Assembly: GCA_032718475.1 (NCBI GenBank)
Contig: JAUCBJ010008837.1
Coordinates: 21,638 to 85,637, forward strand
Length of the DNA stretch: 64,000 nucleotides
Direction: 5' to 3'
Source of the DNA: Nemertoderma westbladi
Lineage: Eukaryota > Animalia > Xenacoelomorpha
The position numbers and the translations under genes were made by a program. Under the pieces are notes generated by a model. It ran no database searches and was not told the DNA's origin. It was given only the letters and a program-made list of their open reading frames with translations. This document shows positions 19,512 to 52,465 of the stretch, piece by piece (positions within the stretch are counted from its first letter, which is position 1; every line of letters begins with the position of its first letter).

Positions 19512-19528
19512 ACACACACACACACACA

Positions 19529-19619
<91 letters not shown>

Positions 19620-27429: not shown

Positions 27430-27489
27430 AATAATAATAAATACGAAAAATATTACAAGTGATAAATTTTAAACCGTATCGCTGTAATA

Positions 27490-31107: not shown

Positions 31108-31394
31108 TCCACCCCGTTATAAAAAGATCGACCCGATCTTTACAATAATAAAATAAATGAAATACATAATTAAATTAATTCATAAGTCACCAACAACTTT
31201 ACTTTCAGTTTCGAAAATTCCAATGTTAACTATCAACACCTTAATTATTATAACCAAAGATAAAAAAAAATACACATATACCCAATTCAACAATTAATAA
31301 TTGCATCATTATTTAGTTATTATTACATATTGTTATACACCAATTAATGAATTATTCTTACAAACAACAAAAAAAAACTAAAAATATTACTAAT

Positions 31395-34300
31395 TTATTT
31401 ATTATCCCTACAATCTTCACAAAACCGTAATTCTGAATCCGGTTCACCTTCTAACCCAACACAATGAAAATGGAACCATTCTAAACAACCATCGCACCCA
31501 ACCATTGATGGTCCTTCGTCAAACCATGGAATACCGCATATGGGGCACGGTAAAACATCTGTTTCACCATCAAAAGGTGGATTTTCCGTGCTGCGTGCAG
31601 CATCTACTTCACGTCCTAATACTGCGTCAGTCGGTCGTGGAGTAATGGTTTCATTTGTGTGTAGTGATGGTAAGTAAGGACCTACTCGCAATCTGACGTC
31701 ATCTCGACTTATCGTTTTCGTTTTAGAATCTCTCATTCCACCAATTTTAACATTCTTTGAGTCCAATTCTACAACTCTAAATGGTCCAGAAAACTTTGGA
31801 GCAAGTTTCCTATCTGTCCCGGTTAAATCACTGTGATGTCTACACCACACGAGATCACCAACTTTAATTAGTTCGTCACGTACATTCTTATTATAATTTC
31901 GTTTCTGTGTCAACTGTGCTCTGCCTATGTATTCCTTCGCCAATTTCCAAATCTCCGTCATCTGTTCTCCTATTATCTGGGCTCGCTCATCAGGTTTAAT
32001 GTTATTTGATGTCCTTATAATCAAGTTATCTACGGGACGTCTAGCTTCATAACCATGTAATGTATAAAAAGGTGTTTGGTTCGTCAACGTGTGAATTGTA
32101 TTATTATATGCAAATTGCGTCATTAATAACAATTCGTCCCAATTCCTCGACTTGTGATCTGTCAATGTCCGTAAGAGTCTAATGACAGTCTGAATAGTCC
32201 GTTCAGCCAACCCATCAGCCTGTGGATGGTATGGGACTGTAAATGTCTTCAATGATCTACATCGTTTCGTAATTTCATCTATTAACGTCGACCTAAAATT
32301 CGGTCCTTGATCTGATAATAATAATTCTGGTGCACCAAATCTCAACACAATTCGATTAATAAATAACTCGTTCAAATGGGCGATCTACTTGAATAGATTC
32401 CATCTCATATTTATTTCGAATATCTCTACACGTAGCACAAATATGACAACTCTTATAAAATTTATCAACATTGCTATACATGCCTCTCCAATAATAAAAT
32501 CGAAGCATTGTATTGTACATCTTGGTGGTCGCAAAATGACCAGCTGAACAATTTTTGTGATATGCCTCTAGTAACACTGTCCGTAAACAACGTGGTACAA
32601 CTGTAAGCAAATCAACTTTAAGTTGCCCTTTTACATGTTGTTTATAATAAAGCACATCATCATGTAATTCGTAAAACTGTGCTTCAGCTGTGATACGATA
32701 ACATTCTTTCTTATTTTCAGGTAAAATACCGTCACTTAAATATATCATTAAAGGTTTGAGTTCAACATCTTGCAACTGTTTAATTCCTATATCTACCTTT
32801 AATGGCACTGTTTCTAGAACATTGATTTCTACACTATCTACACACACCTCTGAATCTACTTCTCGTTGTATGGTCTCTATGGGACACTTGCCAAATTCTT
32901 TATCTGGACAACACAATGGCGCCAATCTACTCATAGCATCAGCGTCTTTGTGTTTTGCACCTGGGCGATATCTAATTTCACAATTAAATTGTGTTAACCA
33001 CATCGCCCATCGCGCTAATCTACCTTCTAAATGTTTTGCAGTTAATAAATAAGTTAATGCACTATGATCAGTATAAACAATAAATCTGCGTCCATACAAA
33101 TAAGGACGGAAATGTTTTACAGCCCAAATAATGTTGATACAAGACAATGTTGATGCAAATGACTGATACCATAATTTACTTCGCTTCCATGCAACACTCG
33201 TGAAGCATATGCCACTGGTTGCGGTTTATTATTACTGTTCAATTGAGCTAAAATTGCTCCTAGTCCTGTATGACATGCATCTGTGTGTAAATAAAAATCA
33301 TTATCAAAATCGGGGTGAATCAAACAAGGAGTGTTCGTAAGTGCTTGTTTGATATCAATAAATGCACTCTGCTGTGCAGAACCCCACACAAAAGTAGTAC
33401 TGTTTTTCATTAATTCAGTCATCGGTCGTAATCTATGAGCACAATGTGGTATGTAAATACGGTAATATGAGGCTAAACCTGTAAAACAACGCACATCCTT
33501 TTTACACTTAGGTTCGCTCAAATCTAACAATTTTTGCACAGTTTCAATATCTGGTTGCCTTCCATTAATATCTACAGTATGACCCAAATACGTAATTCGA
33601 GACATTATAAAATAGCATTTCTTTAACTTCAACTTAATACCAATACGACCTAGGGCTTGCAATACCTCATCTAATCGATGGTTATGCTCAGAAATCGTAT
33701 AAGCCCATACTAAAATGTCATCTAAATAAACTAAACAAGTAATAAATTGTAACCCTGTTAAAGCTGTGTCCATCACACGCTGCCATGTCGGGGGCGCGTT
33801 TATTAATCCAAACGGCATACGTTTGAATTGATATGACCCTTTGTGAGTTGCAAACGCCGTCTTACATCGATCTTGAGGTGCCATCTCTACTGTCCAATAC
33901 GCCGAATATGCATCTAAAACCGTAAAATACATTCGTTTCGAATCATGCGGGGAAGAACCAATACAATCCATTAAATCGTTTATTGACGGAAGGGGATAAA
34001 CATCTTTCCGAGTTACAGCATTTAATGGTCGATAATCGATGCAAAATCTGAGATTGCCATCCTTCTTTAACGCAAATACCGTTTGAAACTGCCATGGACT
34101 CGCTGCCGGCTCGATAACATCTTGCTCGAGCATTGCGTTTATGTGTTTTTCAACCATGGGCCATTGTGACCTTGGTGTCCGAATCCCCTTTATTTGTATG
34201 GGTTTACTATTTCCAGTATCTATATGATGTTGGACTCTATGAATACGACCTAAATCAAGATCATCCTGAGCAAATATATTTGCGTTGCTATACAACAGCT

Positions 34301-36258
34301 TCTTCACATTTTCTTTCTCATCTTCAGTTGCTCCACTGTCTATCTGTAACTTTGAGTTAAATTCTTCTTCTGTCCATGGTTCTCTGTACTTATTATCTTC
34401 CTCGACTGGACATGACATTACATTATAGTCATCTTCATCTTCATCAAGTAAAACTTCATCACCAGTATTTATGTAATTTACTTCCCCCAATTTTGTATGT
34501 TTATTTATTGTCACTGGAACTGACAAAGGATTTAATAATTGAATAGGAATTCGAAAGTGTTCATCTGGAATCGATATTGATCGTGCTGCAGCTATGGAGT
34601 GTCGTTTAGTAAGTTTGTTAGCCTGTTCAAATAAAACTGCATTATAATTAATTTCAGGCATTGTGTCAAGTTGCCCTGTAACCAACATTCGACTTCGAGC
34701 AGGAATCGTAACTATTTCATTACACCAAACAGTAGCAATTTCGGACTCACCAATTGATCTAGTTATCATCTCTGCTGGTATTTGTTTACCATCTATGTAA
34801 ACAGCTATATCATCAGGATTAGTCAAATCCATCATACACCTAAATCCTGCCATTAAATCTAATCCAATCAAAATGTCATATTTACAATATGAGTCAAGTA
34901 ATAGATCAACTTCATGAGTTATATCACCTAATTTCAATGGAACTGTAACCACACCTGCAATGTCTAAAGGATGACCTGAAGCAGACTTTGGTGCAAAGGG
35001 TGGTTGCCCCATCTTAAATTTACTCTTCTTTTTCTTCTGTAACTTATAAAGTACTGATTTCTGCATTAGTGAAATTTCACTTCTACTGTCTATTAGAGCT
35101 TTGAATGTATTTCCTTGTATTTCGATAGAAACTACAGCCCGTCTGAGATATTGCCCAGCGAATCTACTTCCATTAGCTTTACTGTTATCAACCGAAATTC
35201 TGGCAGAATCTGCCTCTGTTGCTTTGATTTGTTCTTCCTTAATTTCACGGAAATCATCTTTATGTATTTTCAAATCATCCTGACCAACTTGAACTAAATT
35301 ACATTTCACATGTTTATTATCCGTACTATTAACATTACTAAATGAATTTCTATTTGTATCTCTCAGTTTAGTATCATCACTGCTACTATTTTTCCATTTT
35401 CCTTGTGTACAATCTTTAGCTTTATGGCCTGTTTTCTGGCATTTATAACATAATGTAGGTGCTCTACAATCTTTAATTTGGTGGTTAGTTCTTCCACAAT
35501 TATAGCAAGCATTATTATTTTGTGACACTGACTGCATTCTTGGGTATTGAACATCTAATTCATATGCCTGTTGTAATAAATCTTTCCAAGAAGATCCAAC
35601 ATTAATTCGTCGCCAACCTCTTAAACGCCCACTTATTTCATTTCGCACATTTCCAGCAAACAAATCTTGGAAAATTTCTTGTTCACCATCACCACTATGA
35701 TCCTCACGTCGCCGCCGAACTGCAATCATAAAACGCTCTACAAATTCTGGTATTGTTTCATTTAAACCTTGCTTACATTGTGCAATGTCTGCTACCAGAA
35801 CAACATTGGTACAACATTACGTTTATGATCTCCTAAAATTTGAATAATAGCCCTCTTCATACTTTCATAATCTATTCTATCTCTGGGTTCTAAAGTTTCA
35901 TCTAACATTGAATGTAATCTACCTATTTTAACTAGAAGTCTATTCTTTCTTTCTTCCATTGGTACTTGCGAATCTATCATTATTCGCTCATAATATTCAC
36001 TAAACCAATCCTGGATGCTCATCTTTTTAGGATCAAAAGGAGGTATTTGCTCTGTTAACTTCGTAGAACGACTTGCCAAAGAACCCGTTGGTGCCTCATC
36101 TGATCCAGGACCACCATCATCTCGACGACTTCTCGACAAGTTTAGCATCTGCTCATCTCTAGCATCAGCTCGTCTGCATCTATCCTCCTCTCATTGATGA
36201 ATTTCTGCCATCATTGTAGAGAACATTTGATTTTGTTGCGTCATCATAGAATTAAACA
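31395..36258 (-). pseudogene. Gypsy gag-pol: zinc knuckles, protease, RT, RNase H, integrase with C-terminal PHD finger; disrupted
   Basis: CYNCGRTNHQIKDC, CYKCQKTGHKAKDC, ALIDSR (DSG mutated), YLDD, TDAC, HHCC, SDQG, AERTIQT, GPFRV, PHD. Breaks near 36194, 35790, 33130 and 32360. Confidence 0.92.
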
Positions 36259-36264
36259 TTCGTA

Positions 36265-36700
36265 AGTAGTAGGGTCTTGGCCGGCTCTGCGACAGTTAGA
36301 CCTAACTGACACCCATTGGGTGTCATATGACACCCAATTATCACCCTATGGGTGTCATTGGGTGTCATTGGCGCCAGACTGTCTGGGTGACACCTCCCAA
36401 TTAGGCTAATTAGACCCTAATTGACAGGTGTCATCAATTAATTAGTACAATTAAACCCTAACAGGTGTCATATGACTCCTAATTAGGGTTTATTTGATTA
36501 TCCTAATTAATCAGACTGATTAGCGCCCTGACACACAATGGGTCATCAGTGATGTCTAACTGTCGCAGAGCCGGCTCAAGAGGGTGTCATAAGTGACACC
36601 GCAGCTCTTTTATTCATTAATACTTATTTATTTATATTTAATTTTAATTAATTGTATTCTATTTTACTTTATTTTATATTAATTATTCATTTGTACTTTA
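36265..36700 (+). repeat. Left TIR (~430 bp, imperfect) rich in TGACACC/GGTGTCA palindromes
   Basis: Reverse complement of about 50845-51279; further patchy similarity between 36990-37160 and 50730-50870. Confidence 0.88.
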
Positions 36701-37287
36701 TGGGTATACAGCTCCCTTACTGGTAACTAATTACTCTTATCTATATCCAGACAGCTTTATCGTTGACCTTTGACCTTTGACCCCCCAATTAGCTTTAACC
36801 AAGCAACAGCATATTAATGATAGTTGTATCCAAGCGCCCCTGCCCCCCCACCCCGTGACAGCTCTGATTACTAATTACTCTTACATATATCCAACCGCCT
36901 GCAGTTCCATAGTCTGCCGCTAGAGGGCGTATTATCTGAAAATTAACATCTTCTCTAACTTTGTTATTTTCAATTTAACTATTTATTTATATTTAATTTT
37001 AATTAATTAATTGTACTTTATTTTACTTTATTTATTCATTTGTAGTTTATTTTAAATTAATTAATTGTATTCTATTTTACTTTATATAATGATTTCTATT
37101 TTTAGATGAATTTGGTTTTAAATTGCCAATGAGATCACTATGACATAATGTCTATTTTTAGCTCTATGGTTTATAGATCCCTTATCGTTAACTTTATAAT
37201 CTTTCCTCTCGTGGCCCCTTTGTCTTCGTTATTCAATGGCGCCATTCTGTCTACCATTGAATAACATTGGGCAATCATTATCTCGCC

Positions 37288-37392
37288 TGATGTGACGTCA
37301 TCAAAGCTGCTCTCTGATTGGTTTAATTATACAGTCTTTTCTCCCTCCTGTTCCCTGATTGGCTAACCCATTCTAGCCCCCTCTATAATAGC
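37288..37392 (+). promoter_or_regulatory. Pol II-type promoter: CRE (TGACGTCA), two inverted CCAAT boxes (CTGATTGG), TATAAT
   Basis: Motifs upstream of the ATG at 37510. Confidence 0.55.
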
Positions 37393-37509
37393 CCCCGTTC
37401 ACCACATTCCCAATCATTGTCTCTTTGTTTTCCTGAAAAGTTTTAATTATTTTCGTAAAAGTATTTATTTATTTTTATTTCCTAAACGAGTTACCGGTAC
37501 ACAATCACG

Positions 37510-39201
37510 ATGGCACATTCAGAAATCAGCTATTCAAGCAACGATCTGGTTTGCAACGAAAATCAGTTTATGCTACAAGACAACTCGTTTGGTCTATATT
37601 TCGATTCGGCGAACAAACTCTTCCCGTTAACGATAAATACAACCTTAAACCAACCCATCCCGATTCCGGCAAACTACGCGCACTTTATTTTCCGCGCCTG
37701 CTACGAACTTCACGATGGACAATATCAAACCCTCGACGATAATAAACTTCATTCCTCCAACCACGGTTTCAAACTTTTAAAAAGGGACAACAAAATCACG
37801 TTCAATCTAACTACTTCGCCCGAGACGTTTACGATTCCAACTAGTATAGTCGATTTTATTCGAGAAAACATCAACCAAGATGTGGCAAATCGTCTACTGG
37901 GTTTAACCACCCTCGTAACCTCCTTCTTCTCCGATGATCGCTTATTTGATTTTCATAGTATCGCAAACTCGATTCTTCTTCTCATCTGGAACTCGTCGAC
38001 TCCGACCGAGGAAGAGGAGACTCGTTTCTTTAAACTTTTCGACAAGGATGTTCTCACTTTCGGCGAGAAATTGAATGAGCTCACATGCTTTTTCGCCAAT
38101 AAAGTCTCCTATTACTTTGGATTCAATTATAGAGTTGGCACCTATGGAAGTATTAACCCAGTGAATCCACTCGAGTTAATAAAGCTGGAAGACACTGTAA
38201 ACAGTTCATGGATCACATTTTCCGTCACCTGCGCCAATTTATTTCAACAATATGTAAACATCTGTCGCCCTTTTATTAATCCTACTACTCACCTTGTCCT
38301 AAAACCGGGAATTTGGGTTGCTTTTGACTATTGCACTTTTGGGTTTGTTACAAATATTCGGAACGAGCGCAATTTAGCGATCACCAATGGCTACGAGGTT
38401 GACGATGGAAAGGCTATTGTTTCTTCTAGGGGCATGATTCTTCTTACACCAACCGAGGTCGGCGAATTGAAATGGTTCGATTCAACCGTCGAGGATAGTG
38501 AATGTGTCTGCTACGATGAACTTAACGTATACAAAGACAACATTTCCGAGCGAATATCGATACAAAGTTGTATCAGCGATTCAGAAATTGATTTACAGAT
38601 AACCGAGAGAAAATTTAACGAATCCTTTACTATAGCTAACACGATTCAAGCGCGCGAGGCTCTAATCAGATTCAAGGCTATGGCTATACAATTTGCTTTC
38701 AAACCAAAGCAGATTACGATCCCCAATCACCAACGCTATCTCATAAATAGCAGTATCGCAGCCTTTATCTATAAGTTCAAATCCGAAAAATATGTTGGTA
38801 TCTGGCCCATTTTAATGAAAGACGAAGAGAATACCACTTTTCAGTTCACCAACGGTCTCAATATTAGGGGCAGCGATTTTCTCGCGATAAATATAACCAA
38901 CCCACCCAACTCTCACTACTATCTCAGTCCTTACATTCATATCGAGAACAAACCAGCAGAAATTATATTCACCAATACGAAAAATACCAACACTATCACC
39001 CTATCCAACGACTTTACCATCGCGCGCCTTTTCAAATTACTAAAACGTTCTCTCAGAGAAGGCATATTTCTCCCGCAGCAAACACACCTTAATCTATTTC
39101 ACCCCCCAAGAAAAGGTTATCTCAACAAACTATTAAAGAGAAAATTATCGCAACCATTAATAGTATCGGACCCTAAAAGGGTTAAACCAGTTATTCTCTG
39201 A
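37510..39201 (+). CDS. 563-aa protein with two or more PC4-like repeats
   Basis: FGFVTNIRNERNLAI...SRGMILLTPTEVGEL and AAFIYKFKSEKYVGIW...NGLNIRGSDFLAI; C-terminal NLS-like PKRVK. Confidence 0.65.
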   Translation: MAHSEISYSSNDLVCNENQFMLQDNSFGLYFDSANKLFPLTINTTLNQPIPIPANYAHFIFRACYELHDGQYQTLDDNKLHSSNHGFKLLKRDNKITFNLTTSPETFTIPTSIVDFIRENINQDVANRLLGLTTLVTSFFSDDRLFDFHSIANSILLLIWNSSTPTEEEETRFFKLFDKDVLTFGEKLNELTCFFANKVSYYFGFNYRVGTYGSINPVNPLELIKLEDTVNSSWITFSVTCANLFQQYVNICRPFINPTTHLVLKPGIWVAFDYCTFGFVTNIRNERNLAITNGYEVDDGKAIVSSRGMILLTPTEVGELKWFDSTVEDSECVCYDELNVYKDNISERISIQSCISDSEIDLQITERKFNESFTIANTIQAREALIRFKAMAIQFAFKPKQITIPNHQRYLINSSIAAFIYKFKSEKYVGIWPILMKDEENTTFQFTNGLNIRGSDFLAINITNPPNSHYYLSPYIHIENKPAEIIFTNTKNTNTITLSNDFTIARLFKLLKRSLREGIFLPQQTHLNLFHPPRKGYLNKLLKRKLSQPLIVSDPKRVKPVIL

Positions 39202-40359
39202 GACCAGCAACCCTATTAATATAAACAGTCTCTATTTAATAAAAACTGTTCTCACTATATCTTTTGTTATTGTCGATGTTCTTATATTATTTATTTTCAA
39301 TGTTGTTGGTAAATTATTTATCTGTTGTTATATTATTTAATATTGATGTTGTCGGTAAATTATTTATTCTTGTTTCCCCATATTGTTTAAAAAATATAAG
39401 ATGCTTAACCGGCTATTTTTCATTTTTCTCTACTAGTTAATCTATTCTATGAGAGCGAGCCATGAAGTAAGTGAGTCTCAGCATACCATTAATGACCCCT
39501 ACTGCTTCTTCGTAATCAATTTGAATGTTAACCCCTAAATAAACAGCCAATCCCTATGAATTCTTTACAAACTCGATATGCAAGTTGTTTATCAGAGCTG
39601 ATTTTAATTAAAATATATTATTTAGCGATTTTCGTGATTAATGCTATAAATTATATTCACCAAAATGAAAATATCCACCCTATTACTCTATCCATCAAGC
39701 GATGCTTTGTATGTATTGATGGCGAGCAAAGTTTTCAGGGCGACCACCTCTAGGCTGTAAGTACGCTGTTCTGTCCTATCATAGACACTCTGTCTTTTAG
39801 ATGCTTCACTGTTAATATTAAGCCGTTAGCCATGGCGCCGCTGATAAGCCGCGAGGATATTCAAAGGCTTTGGTTTGATTGTTCGTACTATGGATAGTTC
39901 AATGAAATCATGAAAGGGAGGGCCGCATGGGGTTGAAAGTGATAGCCCCTCATCCTTATTTTCCCGAGAAATTCTTAAAGGCGACTATGAATAGAACAAT
40001 GAAACATTAAAGGGAGGACCGCATATGATGGGAATGATAGCCTTTCAACTGCCTTTGCCCAGATTTGTGTAAGTTCGAGGGAGGATGTAGAGGAAAATAT
40101 ACTCGTAGCTTTAATGCCCCATTTGATTAAAGTAGAGCAAATTTAGCTTTCACCTAAGGGTTATCACTCCTTGCAACTGCAAAATTTAAAATTCTATCTA
40201 TGATGTATTCACTATATTTCGTTTGCTGACATTATTTCATCGCGAAATTAAAAGCATCTGCTATCACTATTATTATAGTATATTATCTAAACTAGTGACA
40301 CCGAGTTGGAACAGATAGGATAATTGCACTTTGTTATGTTTTAGTTTAGTAGCTTTAAT

Positions 40360-41012
40360 CATAATACTACCAGGCTATAAAATGTTGTATAAATATCGGG
40401 GGGAGGGTCATAATGACCCCGGTCGAGGTGGGGAATCGAATCTATGACAATCTGTATATCCTATTTTGTGTTTACTTTTTATATTTTCCACGAAGCGAGG
40501 GCAAAAATTTAAATTTCCTGAAAATTTCTGAGTCTCAGCACACCATTAATGATCCCTATGCCTTTTTCGTAGTCAATTTGAATGATAATCCCTAAATCCC
40601 TATATTTTTCATAAAAACCCTCAAAACTTTACAAATTTTGAAAAATCGGCTAATATAAAATGCCCCATAGTTTCAATAAAAATGGTACTCGAAATGTGAA
40701 TACAATGCTTCCACTTCATCAAGGTGAAACCTTAACGAAAACTATCCTGATCCACACTCGATTTGTAAATACATTGCATCCACTTTTACCCAGATGGAGC
40801 ATTTGTATTGTATTTAAGATTTATTTTCATGAGTCACATAATAACCCCAATACTACCGGCCTATAAAATATTGTATAAATATTGGGGGGAGGGTCATAAT
40901 GACTCTGGTCGAGATAGGGAATCAAATCTATGACAATCTGTATATCCTATTTTGTGTTTACTTTTTATTTTTTCCGTGAAGCGACCAAAATTTAAAATTC
41001 CTGAAAATTTCG
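40360..41012. repeat. Two ~165-bp direct repeats (about 40360-40530 and 40848-41012), each with a minus-strand tRNA T-arm-like unit
   Basis: Shared GGGGGAGGGTCATAATGAC...GAATC.AATCTATGACAATCTGTATATCCTATTTTGTGTTTAC. Confidence 0.75.
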
Positions 41013-41495
41013 CGGATAGAGAATATAAATATAATTGGTGAGCATAGTGCTACGCGAAGGCTCCATGGCAGATGTATTTTAGCTATGGACTCGTATATCC
41101 ATTCTACTCTACTATAGCCAGACTGTCTTCGAGGTGCCCCGTTAGCCTTGGCGCCGCTAAATCTGCATGAGGGTCGGCCGGCAAGCGAGATATCTCTATT
41201 GCTAATAAGCTTGAGGGCCCAAATAAGGCTAACATTCATATGCTATATCCCATAGTTATTACCGATATATAATTACTACTGGCTCCTAACGACTTATCAC
41301 TGGGAGCCCTTTAATTAAAGCCGCCGCTCGTTGAAACTGTTGCGTTGCTCCCTCTGCGCTGATGCTATATAAACCGAGACGGGGCCTTCATTCGTCACCA
41401 GTTTTGAGTTCGAAAAATTTTATGTGATTTATTCTACATTTTAAACTTTTGCGTTTACAATTTTAAACTTGTTAATTTACCAATTAATCAATACC

Positions 41496-41921
41496 ATGGA
41501 TTCCACCTCCAACACCCAGCTAGCTGCCCCCGTGGCATCGGTCTCCATCACCACCACAGCTACATCCATCACCACTGCTTCCAACGCTATCAACACAACC
41601 ATGACCAGAAGCGTTGGTACACAGACCATGGAGAGCAGGTCGGAAGCGGCCACTCCCTATGGCCGTTTTATGAGGGATCAGGAAGAGGAGATGGCCTGGG
41701 AGGAGGATTTGGTTAATCGAGAGCTCGAGATTCGAGCATTGGAGGAAGCGCGTGTGGAAGGGCTTCGGACCTCCTCCAACTGGTACGACCAGTATTTGTA
41801 CCAGGAATATGTTCTGAAAGAGAAAGCAGCGGCTGAGGAACAGCGTTTCCTTCACCCTTTTCCCCAGGAAAACTGGGAGGAAACAGAGGATTTTAGGGAG
41901 GAACCATGGTGTAAGTTTTAA
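41496..41921 (+). CDS. Hypothetical protein: Ser/Thr-rich N-terminus, acidic/aromatic C-terminus
   Basis: TATATAAA at about 41367, Kozak-like ACCATGG, GC-richer than its flanks. Confidence 0.6.
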   Translation: MDSTSNTQLAAPVASVSITTTATSITTASNAINTTMTRSVGTQTMESRSEAATPYGRFMRDQEEEMAWEEDLVNRELEIRALEEARVEGLRTSSNWYDQYLYQEYVLKEKAAAEEQRFLHPFPQENWEETEDFREEPWCKF

Positions 41922-42119
41922 TTAATACTAACATTCCTTTATATAATATGATATAATAAAATAGGTTAAAGCAATATGCAGTTTGAATAGAAATTAATTT
42001 GAGTAATTACAATAATTTTAACGTTATAAGAATGACCAAGATGGCTATAAAGCAATTACTTAAATAATAAATTATTATTTAATTATAAAATAAATTATTT
42101 ATTTTCTCATAGGCTAAAT

Positions 42120-42614
42120 TTGCGTGAGGACCGGCCGGCGAGCGAGATTGGGAGCGCAGTTGTCCCTTACAGTTACTCCTTACAGTATTTGCCTATGTCG
42201 AACCATCTGAAATTCCTCGGACACAAACTGGGAAATTCTAACCCCGCTAGCAACCTCCACAATGTTATCCAGACAATAGCCATGATGTCGCAAGTTTTCC
42301 ATACCAAAGGATGGACAGCAAGGTGGCTCAACCTAGAGACCATCTTTAAGATGTGGAACACACTCACCGTCCCTGTCATAATCTACAGATTAACTCTGAC
42401 TATTGGATCCCTACGCCGAAAGGATATCGACAAACTCGACGCCTACCACCGCAAGGTGCAACGTAGCCTCTTACTTCCTGGGAACTATCTGGAGAATAAT
42501 ACACTCTATCTACTCTCAGGGACCCCACCATTATCGATCATTGCCTATCGGAGTTGCTATAGAACCTTAGTTAGAACACTTGATTGCCCTAGTCTCGAGC
42601 TACAGTTACCTTAA
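42120..42614 (+). pseudogene. Divergent fragment resembling the C-terminal (thumb) region of a LINE reverse transcriptase
   Basis: LKFLG...PVIIY...KLDAYHRKVQRSLL...NNTLY...TPPLS parallels FQYLG...SVFLYG...RIDGCYTRLLR...NAELY..IPPVS in the RTE element at 54480-59310. Confidence 0.55.
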
Positions 42615-43267
42615 TTATAAATGTATTTACCCCCACATTATTTATTACTATTAGGTCTATCTATTCAAGAAATTATATGTTTTTATAATATACTTTGGAA
42701 AATTAGTCGACTAAGTCATAATTTTTAAAACTTTAAATACGGGTTGAGTTATTTTATAAAGTTAAGAAGAATGAACCAATAGAGGGAGCCTGAAGTCTAA
42801 TCTCTTGGTCTTTACTCACATTAACTCCCAAGGTTGCATACTATCACTATAGCCGGGGGAGTCAAAGCTAGAGTGTATGCTAGAGTTAACCAAGAGCTAG
42901 GAAAAAGAATAATGCTCTTCTAGGGTCCAAACTCACATCCCTCCAATTAGAGAACTAAGCAAATGATCAGCTTGAAGGTCTTAGACCCTTAATCGGAGGC
43001 ATCGAGCAGCCAATGAGAGAGCAGATGCGAGTACAGTGGTAAAGCCCATCCATAGTGAGATAGCGTTGCACTAGCTCTCAAGGATAGTTATACTCATCAT
43101 TCAAATATCCCTCGCAAACCAGATTCCCCCAACATCTAAAGTAATCCACTTCATTGTAAAATATATAATGCAATATAACTCGAATATTTCTGTTTTTATA
43201 ATATAAATAATAATTGTTACATAAATTTATAATTTAACATGTAAATATAAGGTGAAAATTCACTTTA

Positions 43268-44070
43268 ACATAGAGTAACTAAACTAAACACAAAATAGGA
43301 AAAACAGAAGGTCACGGGCTCAATCCCTACTCATATCCAGTTTTATGGAAAATAAACAGGAGGTCATAGGTTCAATCCCTACTCGCGACCATTATAAATC
43401 CAACACAAAATAAGTTAAACCAGGGTTCGAATCCTAATCATGAAAATATAAAAAGTAAACATAGAATAACTAGAGTAACTAAACTAAACATAAATTAGGA
43501 AAAACAGAAGGTCACGGGTTCAATCCCTACTCGCGACCATTATAAATCCAACACAAAATAAGTTAACCAGGGTTCGAATCCTAATCATGAAAATATAAAA
43601 AGTAAACATAGAATAACTAGAGTACCTAAACTAAACACAAAATAGGAAAAACAGAAGGTCATGGGCTCAATCCCTACTCGTATCCCGTTTTATGGAAAAT
43701 AAACAGGAGGTCATAGGTTCAATCCCTACTCGCGACCATTATAAATCCAACACAAAATAAGATAAACCAGGGTTCGAATCCTAATCATGAAAATATAAAA
43801 AGTAAACATAGAATAATTAGAGTACCTAAACTAAACACAAAATAGGAAAAATATATGCTCGCAGGTTCGATCCCTAGTCGTATCCCGTTTTATGGAAAAT
43901 AAACAGAAGGTCACGGGTTCAAGCCCTACTCGCGACCATTATAAAACCAATACAAAATAAGTTAAACCAGGGTTCGAGTCCTACTAATGCAATTATAAAA
44001 AGTAGGTAACACGGATGGTCACGGATTCAAACCCTACTCACGGAAAAATAAAAACCAACACAAAATAAAT
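43268..44070 (+). repeat. Tandem array of about 12 tRNA T-arm/B-box-like motifs
   Basis: Units such as GAAGGTCACGGGTTCAATCCCTACTCGCGACCA and CCAGGGTTCGAATCCT at roughly 50-90 bp spacing; higher-order period about 150-200 bp. Confidence 0.85.
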
Positions 44071-44107
44071 AATATAGTAAACTTTCATGTATACCATAGT
44101 AAATAAA

Positions 44108-44614
44108 CTAATTTAATAATAAAGTTTGTAAAATAGATAATGATTCGGGGAATTCACCGGCTGGACACATGGAAACGATTTTATTACTATGAAATACACT
44201 GAAATATGCACGTCCTTTATATATTCTAATCGCGCAAAATAATTCGGGGGTATAGCTAATAAATATTGCTTTATTATTAATTGTATGATGTCCACATTTT
44301 TTCATTAATAATTTAAAATTAACACTTGGAAAAATAATAGTTCGTGTTTCGGTATTAAGTTTCAAATTTTGTAATTGCATCCCGATAGTTTGTTTTAAAT
44401 AAAGCAATTCACTAGCTAAATTATTGCACAGGCCTACAATTGTTACTGCGCCGCTGGGAAATAGCATTATAGTTGAATCGTCACCTTTGTAGATAAACAT
44501 GTTTGGTTTTAAGCTACTTTGACCTGTAATTTGCTGTGAAATTTTATCTAGTTCAAATTTGGCAATGTTTTTTCCGGTAAACTGTTTATTGGTTATTTCT
44601 ATTTTGTTGTTCAA
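44108..44614 (-). CDS. TBP-like protein (uninterrupted frame, no ATG at the 5' end)
   Basis: Two-repeat layout: IEITN..FT....FEL..I...KPNMFIY...STIMLFPSGAVTIVG and LNT.T..I...VNFK.L...SYTPELFCAIRI...YFSVFHSNKIVSM, versus TBP TTALIFSSGKMVCTG and SYEPELFPGLIYR...LLIFVSGKVVLTG. Confidence 0.8.
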   Translation of the reverse strand: MNNKIEITNKQFTGKNIAKFELDKISQQITGQSSLKPNMFIYKGDDSTIMLFPSGAVTIVGLCNNLASELLYLKQTIGMQLQNLKLNTETRTIIFPSVNFKLLMKKCGHHTINNKAIFISYTPELFCAIRIYKGRAYFSVFHSNKIVSMCPAGEFPESLSILQTLLLN

Positions 44615-44637
44615 TTTCTTATTCTAGAAAAATAAAA

Positions 44638-47600
44638 TTAAATCCTAGTAGGGGGGATTACTACTCGTTTCGCCGGTCTAACAAGCTTAGTGCTATAGTG
44701 TCCGTATGGTTTGCTGCTATATTTACTACTCCAATATGATTTCGTATCCCAGAGCGTTAGTGCCTTCTTATAGACATGACCAGTAAAAATTTGATGCTTT
44801 CTAGAAGTGAAGGTAGAGTTATAGCGGAAGAGCATTGCCTCGTTTTCAAAACAGTCTGCATAATCCTCGTGTGTTAGTTGCTTAGCGACAACCGATCTAG
44901 ATACACCTTTGGCGGTTTTCTTGATTGGGGCATCGTAGGATTGAAAACTGTAGACCTTTGGTTTAAGGAAAACCCACTGTTTATACTGCAAACCGCAGCT
45001 CTCATCTTTTACGAAGCCGAGAGCCGCTTTGTGTTTAATGGTATAGAGTGGATGTGTTGTACTGTAGTTGGAAGTATCTAGGAAACCACCCTCAAACATT
45101 GCCCGTAGAAAGGTTAGCTGTGGTGTATTAGTTACGCTTAGCATTAGAGAATCCGTGTCACCGGCTAGACAGCGAATCTGGCAATCCAGTTTTTGTTCTA
45201 GAGGCTTCAGTTTGTTGTAAAATAGGTCGTACATCTGTAGCTTAGATAGATCTAGTATAGTGCAACCGATGAACACGCCCTGATTTAGGCAAACAGCCTC
45301 TTTAGTGAAAGTATGACCACTCAAGTTGGGGGTAAATACAACAAACGATTCGTGATTGGGCTTGGCTAAGAGCAAATCGCATTGTTCGTCGCTATTGCAT
45401 AACCTGAAAGAAACGCGGTCTCTAACCTTTTGGAGGCATTTCCCATACAAGGCATTGTTCATCAACTTATAAAATAGGACCTCGAATGGGTTATTTGCCG
45501 ACTGTCTTTTATTTGTATTAAAACTAATGTAGTCCTTGAAAATATATTTTTGCGAGAAAGAGTAGACCCTATGTACTTGTGTAAGTTTAAGACCGAGCTT
45601 CAAATAGAGTTGAAGTAGCTTAATATGGATACCGTATTCAACCTTATTAAACTGATGTAGTAGTAGCTTAGTACAGGTATCGTTGTATGGTCTACAGGTA
45701 GCCTTATCGGTGAGATTGTAATGCTCCCAAAGATCTTCCATGTATTCGCTAAGAAAGGATTTAGGGACTGACATCTTCTCCGCTCCTAGAGGCAGATCGG
45801 CGGTCAAATCATGAATTTCTTTCGGATAATGTAGATCAACTATGCAATAATAACCAGTATCCCCACTCGCGTCTACTGTAGCTAGGTCTATGGGGGTAGT
45901 TACGAGTTTAATATTAGCGTAGGGAAGTTTCTGGCTCAGGGCGCAGCCGTAAAGGTTATTCGCATCGATGGGAATTAGATATTTCTCGGGGAGACTGGAG
46001 TTGTAGTCGGGTTTATCGGGAATATTTGCGTCTACGGAATGCGTATTCAAGAAAACTAGACCACCCCTAATATTTGTTTCAAAGTCTGAGTAGATGGAAG
46101 CGTCTGATAGTAATTGAATTTCTGATTGCGTGAATTTCAGCGCCGCGTCGTAAGTTAATCCAGGGGCAGTGAAGTACATTACGGGCTCGAGTCCATAATT
46201 AGTAAGACAGAGGGATCGGAACTGCTCGAAAGTATCAGCCAATAGGGTAACGTCTAGAACCAAATAGCCAATCATATAGTCGAAGATTGTTGTGCAGTTT
46301 AATTCATCCCAAGTAGTAAGCGCGCGCTGATAGTTGTCTGCGCTACATTGTTCCAATTTGAGATCATTATAGAAGCTTTCTATTGGGGGGAGTGTAGTTT
46401 CGTATAGGTTTGAAATATTTTGAATGTAGGAATATGGGAATACGCCCTTGTTTTTTATTATGTTATCGCTAATGATAGGATAGAGTCGGGTCATTTGAGC
46501 TAGTGTATGGGGTATGGCTGTTGCTAGGTTACTGTTATTTTTAGTGAGATAGCTACTAAGATTATCTAGGCTGGCAGTCATAAACTGATAGGAATCTAGA
46601 AAATTAATGGAGATACTTTCTTTAGCGTTGGCTGTTGGTGTACTCGGATCGATTGGGAAGCTAACTTTAAGGTGAATATAAGTTTCGGTGTTTTTTGGTA
46701 TTACGGTCATTTTCCAGTGTGTTCTAGAACTATCGGTCATTCCTTCTTTTAGTAGTAAATGCATATCGAATTTCCTCAGGTTATGAAATATAATATAAAA
46801 ATTATTCCGTTTTAGGGAAAGTTTCCTGTTGCAGCTGACGCAAGCAGCCCCCCGATACTCCCCGCTATAATGATCGTGATCGCGGACTTTGGTGCTGAGA
46901 TTGTCATTGAGGTTTAAATTATGAGAATCGGGGGTTAAATTACAGTTGCAGACGTAGCATTGTGTAGCGTTATTAAAGTCAGTTTGTTGGCTAGTAGTGA
47001 GTTGCATGGGGGCGTGCGTGTTTGTACTAAAAATGGACCAATCGTATAACTCCCTACAATGACTTTCCATAGCGGTTAGAAAGTCGCGCATTACGTGGTT
47101 ACTGCCATCGTCGCGGAAAATTTGAACATCTGTTTTAGGAGGGTTAATTAATTTCTGATTTGCTACTGTATAAAAGGCTGCCGCGCTAGCTATATGTTTC
47201 TGTGGGAGTTTAATATTGTTTGTAGGTTCTAGAATAGTTTCAATGTCGGCGTATATACAGAAAGGCGGGGATAGAGTCTTATCATACCTATCAAATTTAA
47301 CCAAGAGATTTTCGGGCATATACTCGAGTTGGCGTTTACCCGTATAGCAACGCTCTCGATGTTCTTCCAATGATTTGTCAGTGTAAAAGCCTCTGAGACA
47401 GCGTTCGCAGTGCGTCTTCTTACCGTTAGAATCTTTTGAATTTATTAATCTATCTATGTTAGTAATAGCTACGTAGTGGGCGGGGTTTTTGCTTGTGGCT
47501 TCGATAAATAATAAGTTTAGTACAGTTTTACCGGAACAGTGCGCGCTATCTGGTTGACTTAGAATGGAGAGTTCTTCCGTATTACTCCAATAAAGAAGGT

Positions 47601-48690
47601 TTATACAGTATATAGGGTTGGCTTTCAGAAACTGGGGAATACCAGTTACTCTGTCCACCGGAAAACTTAAATTCGAAAAATCAAACATGTTTAGGAAAGG
47701 AGTAAACGTTGAAATTCTACTAATATTATTTTTTTTTCTATCAATTTTCTTATAATTTGCGGCGGCCAATACTGCGTATTTAAAGCATTCCCCCAGCGGG
47801 CAGTCTACGCTTACGGTACATTTTTTATTTAATAATAATTTAGAATTATTGAACCCTTGACCCTTTAAATAGGGGTTGCGTTGGGACCGCGCAATCTCAA
47901 TAGTTATTCGCTCGATGGCTATTATGCGCCAACCCGAGCCGAGGCAGAGAAACACGCTTAACAGTTGATCGATACGATTGACGGCGCCAGAAAACCAGTT
48001 ATTAAAGTCGCTATTATTCAGAATTTGATTATTGTTACCGCTAGATTTAAAACAGAATGATTCAATTTGAAATCCCTCGCTGGTTTCACGCTCCATTACG
48101 ATGTTGATTGTAAGCCAGACTCTTAAAAAAGTTCCCATGGCACTACGTAAATGGCTACTAACGTGTTCTTGAATGTGTGGAAAATTTTCATTTAATGTTA
48201 ATTCTGCGTCGAGTCTTGTTTCTGCGAGGTCGTTGTTATAGGTAAACAGTCGTCCGTGTGCGCTTCCGTTAGAGGGTGGTTGAAATGGATTGTTTGGGGA
48301 AATAGAATCTCGCGAAGTTGAAGGTTCATTATTGGAGCCGCCGCCGCCGACTTGTTCTGGAGTAGAGTTGATGGGGGATGAGTGGGAGGTAGTCGGAGTT
48401 TTGCGTTTCCGCGAAAAAAGTCGAGTATAGCATTCATGCTCAGTAAAGGATGACAGGGTGAGCGAATCCCCGCAGCGGCAATCGGCTGGCTCGTTTACGT
48501 AACTAAATCCTGTTCCCCCCTGAGGACACGAAACAAGATGGCCAACCAGTGTCTTCTTTTCCGAAGACCAAGTCGGGCAACAGTCGCATCGATATTGCGC
48601 GAAATGAATTTTAATGTGGCGAGATAAATGATCACTCCGTGTCTCTTTGTCGCAGATGGGACAGCTAACTTTATTGCTAGACATAGGCAT
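44638..48690 (-). CDS. Protein-primed family B DNA polymerase (intact, 1350 aa)
   Basis: N-terminal Zn fingers, YADIET, endonuclease VII-like DHDHYSG..RGAAC..CN, FHNLRKFD, KGVFPY, DANNLYG, KLMNNALYGK, GDTDS. Confidence 0.96.
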   Translation of the reverse strand: MPMSSNKVSCPICDKETRSDHLSRHIKIHFAQYRCDCCPTWSSEKKTLVGHLVSCPQGGTGFSYVNEPADCRCGDSLTLSSFTEHECYTRLFSRKRKTPTTSHSSPINSTPEQVGGGGSNNEPSTSRDSISPNNPFQPPSNGSAHGRLFTYNNDLAETRLDAELTLNENFPHIQEHVSSHLRSAMGTFLRVWLTINIVMERETSEGFQIESFCFKSSGNNNQILNNSDFNNWFSGAVNRIDQLLSVFLCLGSGWRIIAIERITIEIARSQRNPYLKGQGFNNSKLLLNKKCTVSVDCPLGECFKYAVLAAANYKKIDRKKNNISRISTFTPFLNMFDFSNLSFPVDRVTGIPQFLKANPIYCINLLYWSNTEELSILSQPDSAHCSGKTVLNLLFIEATSKNPAHYVAITNIDRLINSKDSNGKKTHCERCLRGFYTDKSLEEHRERCYTGKRQLEYMPENLLVKFDRYDKTLSPPFCIYADIETILEPTNNIKLPQKHIASAAAFYTVANQKLINPPKTDVQIFRDDGSNHVMRDFLTAMESHCRELYDWSIFSTNTHAPMQLTTSQQTDFNNATQCYVCNCNLTPDSHNLNLNDNLSTKVRDHDHYSGEYRGAACVSCNRKLSLKRNNFYIIFHNLRKFDMHLLLKEGMTDSSRTHWKMTVIPKNTETYIHLKVSFPIDPSTPTANAKESISINFLDSYQFMTASLDNLSSYLTKNNSNLATAIPHTLAQMTRLYPIISDNIIKNKGVFPYSYIQNISNLYETTLPPIESFYNDLKLEQCSADNYQRALTTWDELNCTTIFDYMIGYLVLDVTLLADTFEQFRSLCLTNYGLEPVMYFTAPGLTYDAALKFTQSEIQLLSDASIYSDFETNIRGGLVFLNTHSVDANIPDKPDYNSSLPEKYLIPIDANNLYGCALSQKLPYANIKLVTTPIDLATVDASGDTGYYCIVDLHYPKEIHDLTADLPLGAEKMSVPKSFLSEYMEDLWEHYNLTDKATCRPYNDTCTKLLLHQFNKVEYGIHIKLLQLYLKLGLKLTQVHRVYSFSQKYIFKDYISFNTNKRQSANNPFEVLFYKLMNNALYGKCLQKVRDRVSFRLCNSDEQCDLLLAKPNHESFVVFTPNLSGHTFTKEAVCLNQGVFIGCTILDLSKLQMYDLFYNKLKPLEQKLDCQIRCLAGDTDSLMLSVTNTPQLTFLRAMFEGGFLDTSNYSTTHPLYTIKHKAALGFVKDESCGLQYKQWVFLKPKVYSFQSYDAPIKKTAKGVSRSVVAKQLTHEDYADCFENEAMLFRYNSTFTSRKHQIFTGHVYKKALTLWDTKSYWSSKYSSKPYGHYSTKLVRPAKRVVIPPTRI

Positions 48691-49200
48691 CTTGAATCTA
48701 GAAAAATAAGTTGATTATTCATAAAAAAAAAAATAAAAAATACTGTATACTTGCTAAAAATAAAGTAAAACAGTAGGTATTAATCGGTTACTAGGCAACA
48801 ATACTGTGTTTGTACAGTTAGGCCTATTGCTGTATTGTAACAATCAGTCGGTGAAACATAAAGCAGGCAGTCGGCAGTATCTAGTGTGGAAGTGTTAGTG
48901 TACCAGCGGTTAGATAGTGGCGATAGCCAAGACACAATAGCGATGGCAGTTATTATTCGTGGAAAGAGGGTCTATAAACAGCAGTCAGTCAGTGCAGTAG
49001 TGCTAGTGATATAGTCTGCTATAAGTGATAAGTCAGATGTACCGATAGCGTTAACCAATACAAATCAACGATAGGCCTAGCTAATCGCTGTGTGAGAACT
49101 CAGTTAGTCAGTAGGATATATAGTGAAAACTGCAGTAATCATTGTTGTTCAGTAGGATCTAGGCTAACTCGAATGATGCGGTACCGATAGTCAGGTAGAC

Positions 49201-49997
49201 AAGCAGATAGACAGATGTAGGCCTATTGATCGAATGCTTCGATCACGGTTTAGGCTATCGGTATCACCGCAGTCTGACAGTAATTAATAATGAGCCTACT
49301 GCAATACTGTTGTACCGGTAGACATTAAAGGTAAATTGTTTGCTAGCGGCGTCGATAGTACCGTCAGATGGTGGAAGGCAGATTTTACTTACGGTGTTAG
49401 TAAATATTCACGGAAAGAGGAAGTTCGTGAAGAAGTTGGTTGACATGGCCGACGAGAGAATTTATCAACCGATGGAACGGAATGGTATCGGAAATTAGAA
49501 ATATTACGCGGCGGATACGCGGAAAGTTTGTTGTCGACGATGAGTGATAGCGCGGCGAAATGATACTAGAAAAATAAGTTGATTATTTGTAAAAAGATAA
49601 AAAATAATGTAAGCAGATAGGCGGATGTAGGCCTAATGATCGAATGCTTCGATCACGGTTTAGGCTATCGGTACCACCGCAGTCTGACAGTAATTAATAA
49701 TGAGCTTACTGCAATACTGTTGTACCGGTAGACATTAAATGTAAATTGTTTGCTAGCGGCATCGATAGTACCGTCAGATGGTGGAAGGCAGATTTTACTT
49801 ACGGTGTTAGTAAATATTCACGGAAAGAAGAAGTTTGGAAGTTCGATGGCGATGAGGAAGTTGGTTGACGTGGACGACGAGAGAATTTATCAACCGATAG
49901 AACGGAATGGTATCGGAAATTAGAAATATTGAAATATTACGCGTCGGATACGCGGAAAGTTTGTTGTCGACGATGAGCGATAACGCGGCGAAATGAC
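49201..49997. repeat. Tandem duplication of ~410 bp upstream of pPolB
   Basis: 49201-49562 is repeated at 49611-49997. Confidence 0.88.
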
Positions 49998-50844
49998 AAT
50001 AATACAACTATACAACTGGATAGTTGACTGACGATAACAAATAAATATTCTTAAATAAATAATATTAAATTCGAAAACAAAATAATGGTAAATGATGTTA
50101 ATCGTAACTTGCAATTGAAATAATGACCTAATATATTGGTGGGGACGTATTAAATAGCAATTCGGTTAGTAAGGGAGGCCCTTGTCTCTTAAATGAGCCA
50201 ATCAGAACGCAGCAGTAGAAATGAAGCCCGCTGATTGGCTGTTCGCGCAAAAGCGGTTACCAGGGCAACTTCTCGTGTTGATGTATCTATTAGAAAACTC
50301 TTGTAAGCATCTTGACTAATTATGTTGAGTTGGCTGTATAACAGAAGCAGGTCTGGTGCAAAGGAAAGGGATTAGTAGAGAGGAATGCGTGATTAGTGGC
50401 GCTTCATTGTTATGATACGGGCTGCCTGGATATAGGAAAGGACCCGAGTGATGCCGGTTATAGTGGGAACAATGGAGGGCCGCTTGAGCATTAGCCTTGG
50501 GCGATATACGGATTTGCTGTAGTCAAGGCCGCGATGGGATTATTAGTGAGTCAACGAAGGGGCTGCTAATAGACGGGACCGCTCATTTATATTTGCCTTG
50601 GGGGTATACGTGTAGATTCACGGCCTGTCGTATCTAGTTAATGAATAATGAGGACAGAGGAGGGGCCCCCCACCGATGAACGCAGTTGATAGTTGCCAGT
50701 AGGGAGCCGTATACCATAGCCATTATAAAGTTAAAAATAGACATTATGTCATAGTGATCTCGTTGGTAATATAAAAACTAATTAATCTAAAAATAGAAAT
50801 CAATGTATAAAGTAAAAGCAATATATACAATTAATTAATTTAAA

Positions 50845-51279
50845 ATAAAGTACAAATGAATAAATAAAGTAAAATAAAATAGAATACAAATAATTAATTA
50901 AAATTAAATATAAATAAATAAGTATTAATGAATAAAAGAGCTGCGGTGTCACTTATGACACCCTCTTGCTCCTCTCTGCGACAGTTAGACAACACTGATG
51001 ACCCATTGTGTGTCGGGGCGCTAATCAGTCTGATTAATTAGGATAATCAATTAAACCCTAATTAGGAGTCATATGACACCTGTTAGGGTTTAATTGTACT
51101 AATTAATTGATGACACCTGTCAATTAGGGTCTAATTAGCCTAATTGGGAGGTGTCAGCCAGACAGTCTGGCGCCAATGACACCCAATGACACCCATAGGG
51201 TGATAATTGGGTGTCATATGACACCCAATGGGTGTCAGTGGGGTCTAACTGTCGCAGAGAGGACCAAGACCCTACTACT
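50845..51279 (-). repeat. Right TIR of the capsid-less pPolB element
   Basis: Ends ACTACT followed by TSD TTCGTA. Confidence 0.88.
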
Positions 51280-51610
51280 TTCGTAACATCATGTTGGACT
51301 GCTTATCTTCACCTACTGCCATATCATCAGCTTCCCCGGACTCATATTCATCGTCGTCCTTGCCGGTTCCGCCAACTGCTCCATGCTCATTGTCCCTTCG
51401 TTTTGGCATCTTTTTATTTTTTTTAACAGATTCCTGATTTTTATTAGCTATCTCTACTTCTTTATGATAAACGTCCCTTACATGTTTAGGAGTCTGCCTA
51501 GTTATCCTACATTTCCAATCCAGATTTACATTAGTGAATTTATCTGCAGTCACTTTAGCGCTTACCTTCTTTTAACCTTCTAACTTCATACAGCAATTCG
51601 CCATACCTGT

Positions 51611-51623
51611 GGTGGGACCTCCA
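51611..51623 (-). other. Primer-binding site TGGAGGTCCCACC (tRNA-Gln)
   Basis: Immediately follows the 5' LTR; complementary to the tRNA-Gln 3' end GGUGGGACCUCCA. Confidence 0.8.
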
Positions 51624-51943
51624 TGTAATGAGGGCCTTCTCCCTCTAACCCGGCTCTAGCACGGCTGCTAAATTTGAACTGTCAACCAAACAATACAGCA
51701 ATAATAAGCATGATATTTATTATCAAAGTATAATATTAATAAGCAGAGAATAAGAATATGTGATTCACTTAACTGTATAACAACCTACCGGTACAAGCAG
51801 TAACCTACTTCGTATGGTACTGCAGTACTGCCTTCCTAGTCCAGTAGTCTGCTAGTCTACAACATAACTACATACAACATAACATAACTGTACTCCTGTA
51901 CTCTGTATTCTTGGTACCGATCATACAGTACATTTCTATTACA
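51624..51943 (-). repeat. Gypsy 5' LTR (320 bp)
   Basis: TG...CA; direct repeat of 30775-31107; followed by TSD TTTG. Confidence 0.95.
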
Positions 51944-52465
51944 TTTGCCTTTTTATATTTCTGGGTGACGCACAAGATTTTTTACCGCTCTACAACCGTC
52001 CATCTCTTTATGTCGGTTATACATCCGTTCAATTTACCGCTCCACAACTTTTGCTTTATTTCTTTCGAATCTTCTTTATTTTTCCCTATTTTTTATCGTT
52101 TCCTTGATCGATTGTACATTATTATTCTCCAATGTCCTTTTGTTTATGCGTATCATTTCGACGTTCAAAAACTATTTTCAAATAGAAACAATACTGCAGT
52201 TTACGCCAAAATAACAAATTACATTTCATTTGCAACTATTTCTTTATGTTTCACTTCAAATACATCAATAAATAACCAGATTTATAATTCCATCGTTCCT
52301 TTTTTATGAGCGTGTTAATATAATGAAAATTTAGCGTCACCTTGAGTATTAGTACACGCACAGATAGTAACTGAAAACATTACAATATCAGGCTCTGGCT
52401 CTTTGCTAACAGAGTCGGCATATTTGGGTGAATTTATGATTATGTAATTATTATTTATCGAGACA

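Follow-up and report, generated by a model that had tools for sequence, protein, structure and literature searches.

A 64,000-nucleotide stretch of the genome of Nemertoderma westbladi (contig JAUCBJ010008837.1, positions 21,638 to 85,637; hereafter the window, whose own numbering is used throughout) harbors an element of about 15 kb that carries a family B DNA polymerase of the protein-primed type (pPolB) between terminal inverted repeats (TIRs) and neither integrase nor capsid genes. The element is probably a self-copying offshoot of the host's Maverick (Polinton) lineage that was inserted in trans. The argument for insertion in trans is that its ends are of the Maverick type and are flanked by a 6-bp target-site duplication (TSD), but that no integrase gene accompanies them. 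Each TIR contains a large palindrome whose predicted fold survives sequence change.

Structure, gene content and ancestry of the element

The ends of the element are fixed at 36265 and 51279, each abutted by TTCGTA. Four public sequencing runs from the host organism were drawn upon: X1 and X3, from one sample; X2, from another study; and X4, whose cover of the element is uneven and which is excluded from depth ratios. Contigs of X1 to X3 cover the element along its full length, and in all three runs the empty site is represented as well, with 36258 joined to 51280 around a single target copy; X4 shows other flanks. The two TIRs are 95% identical across 437 columns and both begin AGTAGTAGGG; the (AGT)2 terminus and the 6-bp TSD are of the Polinton/Maverick type. 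The size, TIRs and exact TSD described in an earlier note on this DNA are thus confirmed by the TIR alignment, by TTCGTA on both sides and by the empty-site contigs. The element interrupts a Gypsy-like retrotransposon, the long terminal repeats (LTRs) of which align with 312 matches, 1 mismatch and 29 gap columns; since they differ by 1 substitution, the insertion is young.

The open reading frames (ORFs) of at least 90 aa encode 563 (forward strand), 93, 141, 139 and 130 aa and the 1350-aa polymerase. The last is intact, as had been claimed: its frame is open, it matches PF03175 and it holds the full set of exonuclease and polymerase motifs, which makes it the protein-primed family B polymerase of a Polinton or Maverick; a C2H2 match was also found. 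Its weak PF03175 score fits the description of Beta-class (group 1) polinton polymerases in PMC8502044, a comparison made by description only (here and below, published reports are cited for the parts of them accessible to us). In Polinton pPolBs a vOTU protease comes after an N-terminal terminal-protein domain (PMC11161782), and the element's polymerase would begin in the same way, to judge by its 32% identity to the Maverick over the N-terminal half and by a Cys/His motif pair. For the 130-aa gene, Pfam alone lends weak support to the label TBP-like (E 0.0015, below cut-off), and the label gains strength from homology to a frame in the equivalent place of the neighbouring Maverick (29%, E 7e-7), which has a Pfam TBP match of its own (E 0.013). 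The description of ORF563 as PC4-like rested on a motif resemblance, which no tool confirms: Pfam, PHROG, PDB and Atlas gave no match, PDB sequence searches returned nothing useful, and two structure models have pLDDT values of 31 and 32. No homologue of ORF563 was found among 1.84 billion representatives, nor any usable Atlas match, and its Maverick homologue, a 355-aa gene, likewise has no outside relative in sequence and Atlas searches. The ORF563 product is possibly a DNA-binding protein. The stop codon that closes this frame (39199-39201) is absent from contigs of four runs, and in the family the gene probably ends a few codons further on.

When 14 proteins of the neighbouring Maverick were compared with the element by tblastn, counterparts were found only for the polymerase, in both its halves (42% and 32% identity), and for the product of the 355-aa gene (27%), all others giving E values of at least 0.08. 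Seven profiles, for ATPase, integrase, major capsid protein (MCP), protease, two pentons and one accessory gene, were built from 4-26 ORFs of metagenome loci, none of them from the window, and score 48-371 bits on the neighbouring Maverick as a positive control. On six-frame translations of the element and its sister copy they reach at most 0.4 bits, with 20 reversed or shuffled controls reaching 2.9 bits, though very old remnants may escape such a search. Both approaches uphold the earlier statement that no ORF or remnant for integrase, MCP, penton, ATPase or protease is present. By these searches the element has neither the rve integrase nor the MCP, penton, packaging ATPase and protease of an autonomous Polinton or Maverick.

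The neighbouring Maverick has a full layout, and its integrase, MCP, ATPase and protease frames are open. However, two ORFs that are out of frame with each other make up its pPolB (22120-26177), and an ATG is missing from its TBP-like frame (21645-21977); this copy is itself probably not autonomous. Three genes of the element, for pPolB, the TBP-like protein and ORF563, share ancestry with genes of this Maverick. In a tree of the C-terminal half of pPolB (65 sequences, 602 columns, FastTree) the two are sisters with support of 1.0, at 1.43 substitutions per site, and in a subset of 15 of the 65 sequences the grouping has an SH-aLRT value of 99.8. The neighbour is also closest to the element's polymerase by identity (43.1% versus 41.1%); the best of 373 database relatives is at most 39% identical. 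Over the N-terminal half, identity to the Maverick is 32%, and the Cys/His motif pair is present. The earlier contention that the element is not a deletion product of this Maverick agrees with the 43% identity of the polymerases and the lack of any DNA similarity, and a view of the two as unrelated is contradicted by the sister polymerases and the TBP-like and ORF563 homologues. Because 16 of 18 related loci of at least 10 kb carry an integrase (27 of 87 when all loci are counted; tblastn), the integrase-less state is a loss. Element and host Maverick are thus old sister lineages, and the element's is without one module. A viral scan with the element's pPolB as single query found no relative; eight viral stretches with the 16-nt terminal pattern match no further than 18 nt and were taken as chance. 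The integrase search yielded no relative above 51% identity and no second integrase family of the host.

The earlier note had seen in the two elements a candidate satellite and its candidate helper. Insertion in trans is supported; the choice of the neighbour as helper is not. The first 9 nt of the element and the Maverick are indeed identical and their TIRs are otherwise unrelated (best local score 18, shuffle mean 19), but no end motif is more frequent among Mavericks than (AGT)2 (PMC8097293), and the match therefore does not single out the neighbour. According to the same source, (AGT)2 ends with 6-bp TSDs are general in Mavericks, so that these features identify a helper class, not the neighbouring copy. 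Adjacency is likewise weak evidence, since the window is a nest of retrotransposons.

That the family has moved more than once, as had been proposed, is borne out by the sister copy, the empty site and the other flanks in X4. The sister had been called near-identical; it is about 95% identical to the element outside ORF563 (94-96% in non-coding parts), but its 563-aa homologue has a stop and its middle is different. The two copies share 36265-40194 and 42613-43565, between which the sister has 727 other bases. Neither of these middles has an integrase, and by a depth estimate about half of the family's copies have a middle unlike either. Deleted derivatives exist, for contigs of X1 and X4 contain a joint of 44630 to 47857 that skips most of pPolB; one X4 contig tracks the TIR for about 43 bases before passing into unrelated sequence. 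As in a helper-dependent satellite with genes of its own to maintain, the element's genes bear marks of purifying selection. Compared with the sister over 559 codons, a single two-hit codon being set aside, ORF563 shows 17 synonymous changes and 14 that are non-synonymous (pN/pS 0.22, p 4.5e-5), and among the 40 of 599 differences listed, 7 of the 10 in pPolB are at third positions (p 0.02).

Palindromic ends and a possible replication cycle

Within the TIR, positions 11-317 are predicted to form a long stem that bears three daughter hairpins, while the 10 terminal bases stay free. The left TIR folds at -111.6 kcal/mol (z -17.6, 100 shuffles) and the right at -112.6 kcal/mol (z -23.9, 20 shuffles); 246 of 307 bases are paired in the left TIR and 240-248 among the TIRs of the family. 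With 20 shuffles each, the three family TIRs give z values of -17 to -24, versus -0.2 and -1.4 for the Maverick TIRs. Between the sister and the right TIR there are 19 differences, which leave the energy unchanged (-113.3 versus -112.5); 200 random placements of them average -79.5, and none of the 200 reaches the observed value. In addition, a 3-nt loop is inverted in the sister TIR. This pattern fits a folded single-stranded intermediate with copying from arm to arm. An origin of the element as a whole by fold-back is not supported: beyond the TIRs only AT-rich matches of 47-55 bp remain (score 56 versus a shuffle maximum of 58), with no gene remnants.

The likeliest cycle is self-replication by protein priming and strand displacement that starts at the AGT tails, followed by insertion through an rve integrase of other origin, and it could run as follows. 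A linear copy would leave the chromosome, and the terminal-protein part of pPolB would prime at the 10-nt AGT tail, the polymerase displacing one strand. The displaced strand would fold its ends into branched hairpins, the tail staying free for a second round of priming, and arm-to-arm copying at the hairpins would produce both the compensated changes and the inverted loop. Finally, an rve integrase supplied in trans would insert the duplex. The TSD and the ends are what point to integration by helper proteins. The integrase might come either from the far more abundant ordinary Mavericks or from an unseen element with integrase and capsid genes and the same hairpin ends. Packaging of the element into Maverick capsids is possible. 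Complementation among polintons has a precedent, because mobile polintons without polB have been reported (10.1101/2025.02.07.637071).

Contig depth and alternative origins

Summed contig depth gives a loose picture of the family. The element's pPolB reaches 4653 in X1, 3300 in X2 and 20997 in X3, and relative to it ORF563 stands at 1.11 (X1) and 1.00 (X3) and the sister's filler at 2.0-5.5. Sister positions 34-1478, 1.4 kb of non-coding DNA, are 2-6 times deeper than the element's genes, and must therefore be shared with a more abundant repeat or derivative. The Maverick stretch from ATPase to protease is 18.6, 19.1 and 18.8 times as deep as the element's pPolB in X1, X2 and X3; with structural genes some 19-fold deeper, integrase genes are plentiful. 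The element's TIR exceeds pPolB by 4.7-18 times in one bin and by 16-43 times at one site, where each copy contributes two TIRs, and the Maverick TIR bin attains 0.2-0.4 of the expectation from the Maverick body. Depth falls at the Maverick TIR and just past the structural genes (10092-10758, 19430-20086), which may mean that the ends or right halves of many Maverick bodies are different ones. No link from a TIR to a structural gene appears among the 15 of 163 contig joints listed. The depth data show that the family is multi-copy and that pPolB leaves part of the TIR-bearing DNA unexplained; this surplus would consist of short derivatives or of a partner, if not of both. A partner that shares the element's ends may thus exist unseen.

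The latter prospect inspires a variant of our interpretation, which we advance tentatively and count within it. The element might be the replication segment of a split Maverick, the more abundant partner of which has the same hairpin ends and carries integrase and capsid genes but no polymerase. Such an arrangement would amount to complementation as in bipartite viruses, with folded ends like those of parvoviruses, primed by a terminal protein.

Several observations weigh against a self-copying offshoot inserted in trans. Copy number cannot be equated with summed contig depth, and short overlapping contigs inflate polymorphic regions, which makes all such ratios loose. ORF563 reaches only 0.46 of pPolB in X2, the stretch 39589-40115 only 0.49, 0.38 and 0.31 (X1, X2, X3), and the element's filler 0.10-0.13. 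The element is not bridged by any single contig, which hides from view what genes most copies contain. The pPolB branches of element and neighbour are both long, and the 9 nt that they share are mostly the family-wide AGTAGT end. Among the differences listed, third positions account for only 2 of the 7 in ORF563, and selection on this gene could have been inherited from full-length masters. Of the 22 pairs counted in the outer stem, 3 are changed on both sides and none is broken, a result that 27 of 500 shuffles equal and that comes from three sequences only; the count excludes pairs beside an alignment gap, where the left and right TIRs also covary. Template switching at quasi-palindromes during host replication can also give compensated changes.

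In a rival reading, both copies are internal-deletion derivatives of an unseen, contemporary full-length Maverick subfamily with the same TIR and pPolB, whose variable middle houses integrase and capsid genes of its own, and they would be mobile simply as non-autonomous copies belonging to this master. We consider this somewhat unlikely. In its favour, the middle lacks stability, being different in the element and its sister and, in about half of the copies, like neither, deleted forms of the family are present in X1 and X4, and a second integrase family at 40% protein identity would escape contig mapping. Moreover, pPolB with a TIR and without integrase is found at 10 loci of Caenorhabditis elegans, where full Polintons are present (PMC11414722). 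However, neither middle contains a remnant of a structural gene, and both copies retain the same non-coding blocks on either side of the slot. The depth of the element's filler is also 364-1698, versus 9-50 for the lowest-depth pieces of the same runs, which suggests that the integrase-less layout itself has been amplified.

Loss of the integrase and capsid genes after insertion, copy by copy, in a form that never moved without them, is improbable. It is true that 96% of vertebrate Maverick copies are degraded (PMC8097293) and that the sister's ORF has a stop, but two independent and remnant-free deletions of one and the same module would be needed, in an insertion that is young by its Gypsy LTRs (1 substitution) and whose pPolB is intact. 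Improbable as well is that the element exists mainly as a linear nuclear plasmid, with repair or an integrase of non-Maverick type as its way into chromosomes, for while TIRs, pPolB and a possible DNA-binding protein make up a linear-plasmid layout, and capsid-less TIR-bounded pPolB elements are reported from fungi (PMC13215967), the exact ends, exact 6-bp TSD and AGT terminus match Maverick integration, and a depth ratio to Mavericks that is near constant over two samples (18.6-19.1) gives no sign of free amplification.

The features of the window are collected in Table 1. The sequence CTGATTGG occurs 8 times in the window versus 1.9 expected, and 6 of these are arranged as pairs, upstream of the element's and the sister's inward genes. 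The tandem repeats contain 8 of the window's 15 matches to a motif that we take to resemble a tRNA in its T-arm and 3' end (B-box-like), with 3.4 expected in the whole window; ARAGORN found no tRNA in them, and Rfam no family. A by-eye resemblance of the 139-aa filler ORF to the reverse-transcriptase tail of a long interspersed nuclear element (LINE) was dropped, as no significant similarity emerged when it was compared with the window's two LINE ORFs. Between the two filler ORFs (41496-42614), splice-donor-like and acceptor-like sites can be seen by eye, the stronger donor giving no in-frame join. In the Maverick, a 164-bp imperfect palindrome (27524-27685, 76%) lies between the 355-aa gene and the right TIR. 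Elsewhere, 5568-9910 has Gag-like ORFs, presumably of a BEL/Pao retrotransposon, and the highest contig depth in the window, and borders both the sister and the Maverick. We take 52836-54776 and 55075-59063 to be two LINE-like elements; an inverted repeat follows at 60407-61303, and a 58-bp satellite runs to the end of the window (64000).

Table 1. Coordinates of features in the window
Feature	Position	Strand	Remarks
Sister copy	1..5567	-	Left 5.6 kb only, cut by window edge; palindromic TIR 5130-5567; 563-aa homologue interrupted by stop
Full-layout Maverick	9911..28630		515-bp TIRs; TSD CCTATT; member of candidate helper class
Maverick ATPase gene	12119-12799		
Maverick integrase gene	13449-14540		
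Maverick MCP gene	17068-18327		Maverick also has two penton-like genes
Maverick protease gene	18330-18782		
Gypsy-like LTR retrotransposon	30775..51944	-	Split by element; LTRs 30775-31108 and 51624-51944; gag-pol-like ORFs
Left TSD	36259..36264		TTCGTA, identical to 51280-51285; empty-site contigs in X1, X2, X3
Left TIR	36265..36701	+	Branched palindrome of 307 nt (36275-36581) behind unpaired 10-nt tail (36265-36274); inner part AT-rich
Diverged sub-terminal inverted extension	36964..37235	+	Matches 50642-50937, 77% over 297 columns; AT-rich, partly compositional
CCAAT-box-like motif pair	37314..37362	+	Upstream of ORF563; putative promoter role
ORF563, orphan gene, 563 aa	37510..39201	+	Homologue of Maverick 355-aa gene, 27% over 104 aa, E 5e-9
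Variable middle	40195..42612		Local duplications, then filler ~41023-42612
Filler ORF, 141 aa	41496-41921		No Pfam or PHROG family
Filler ORF, 139 aa	42195-42614		No Pfam or PHROG family
Non-coding block common to sister	42613..43270		95% to sister 34-752; contig depth 2.3-6.5 times pPolB
Tandem repeats, 147/200 bp	43271..44080	+	TRF; carry tRNA T-arm/B-box-like motif
TBP-like gene, 130 aa	44108..44500	-	Directly downstream of pPolB, as in Maverick; PF00352 E 0.0015
pPolB, 1350 aa, uninterrupted	44638..48690	-	PF03175 E 3.8e-18; PF02945 (EndoVII, weak) E 4.6e-4; motifs; tree
Direct duplication, ~390 bp	49201..49996		Upstream of pPolB; 90% identity
Right TIR	50845..51279	-	Matching palindrome 50964-51269 and 10-nt tail
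Right TSD	51280..51285		TTCGTA, exact 6-bp match to left copy

Relation to known systems and significance

The element resembles the Polintons and Mavericks (polintoviruses, 'adintoviruses'; PMC11161782, PMC8097293, PMC8502044) in a pPolB nested among integrase-bearing relatives, in TIRs of a few hundred bp, in (AGT)2 and in the 6-bp TSD, and shares with the neighbouring Maverick a TBP-like gene after pPolB. It departs from them in having no integrase, MCP, penton, ATPase or protease gene, and in a 307-nt palindromic TIR unlike the neighbour's. Module loss as such is known. Capsid-less Polintons have dispensed with MCP, protease and ATPase, with no loss of integrase reported in the accessible parts of the description (PMC4028283). 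The polB-less polintons of insects remain mobile, which implies complementation (10.1101/2025.02.07.637071); there polB was lost, whereas our element keeps pPolB and loses integrase and the whole morphogenesis module. In the C. elegans loci (PMC11414722), pPolB lies beside a Polinton TIR without an integrase, but these are described as remnants, and the accessible account reports no paired TIRs with a TSD, selection or family mobility.

Palindromes in TIRs beside a TSD, with a proposed role in replication, have been described in the endogenous virophages and polinton-like viruses of Halocafeteria (10.64898/2026.07.28.741278). Those palindromes are about 52 nt long and lie at the extreme end of capsid- and integrase-encoding elements of a protist, mostly with replication genes other than pPolB; ours is 307 nt long, branched, set behind a 10-nt tail and associated with pPolB. 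Bidnaviruses and the Drosophila Vesanto virus (PMC4061559, PMC8363768) carry a Polinton-derived pPolB on one of several segments with common terminal repeats and provide a model for a split genome, but have single-stranded DNA, parvovirus-like capsids and no integrase, and bidnaviruses are without terminal hairpins. The killer, cryptic and helper linear plasmids of yeasts (PMC13348850) are capsid-less, helper-dependent pPolB replicons as well, but are cytosolic and do not insert with a TSD, and the help they receive concerns transcription and maintenance, not integration. The accessible parts of PMC6431247, PMC10748475, PMC11131425, PMC8502044 and PMC11296320 contain nothing closer to the element. 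Full-text literature searches, which did not extend to most subscription papers, supplements, Repbase or Kapitonov and Jurka 2006, found no description of a TIR- and TSD-bounded, polymerase-only Maverick family under selection. What is new here, and absent from the earlier note, is a branched palindromic TIR behind a 10-nt tail, compensated in its changes, on a polymerase-only Maverick offshoot.

Polintons are thought to have yielded capsid-less linear plasmids and the segmented bidnaviruses by loss of modules. A living intermediate of this process in an animal genome, if the element is truly one, would be rare evidence for it. Surveys that demand integrase or capsid genes beside pPolB (PMC10748475, PMC11131425, as far as their accessible parts describe them) would miss such elements. 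A family with a selected polymerase that moves without an integrase of its own would show that Mavericks complement one another. It also opens two questions to testing: what number of terminal bases a Maverick integrase requires, and whether folded single strands are an intermediate of replication, of which the compensated hairpin ends seem to preserve a record.

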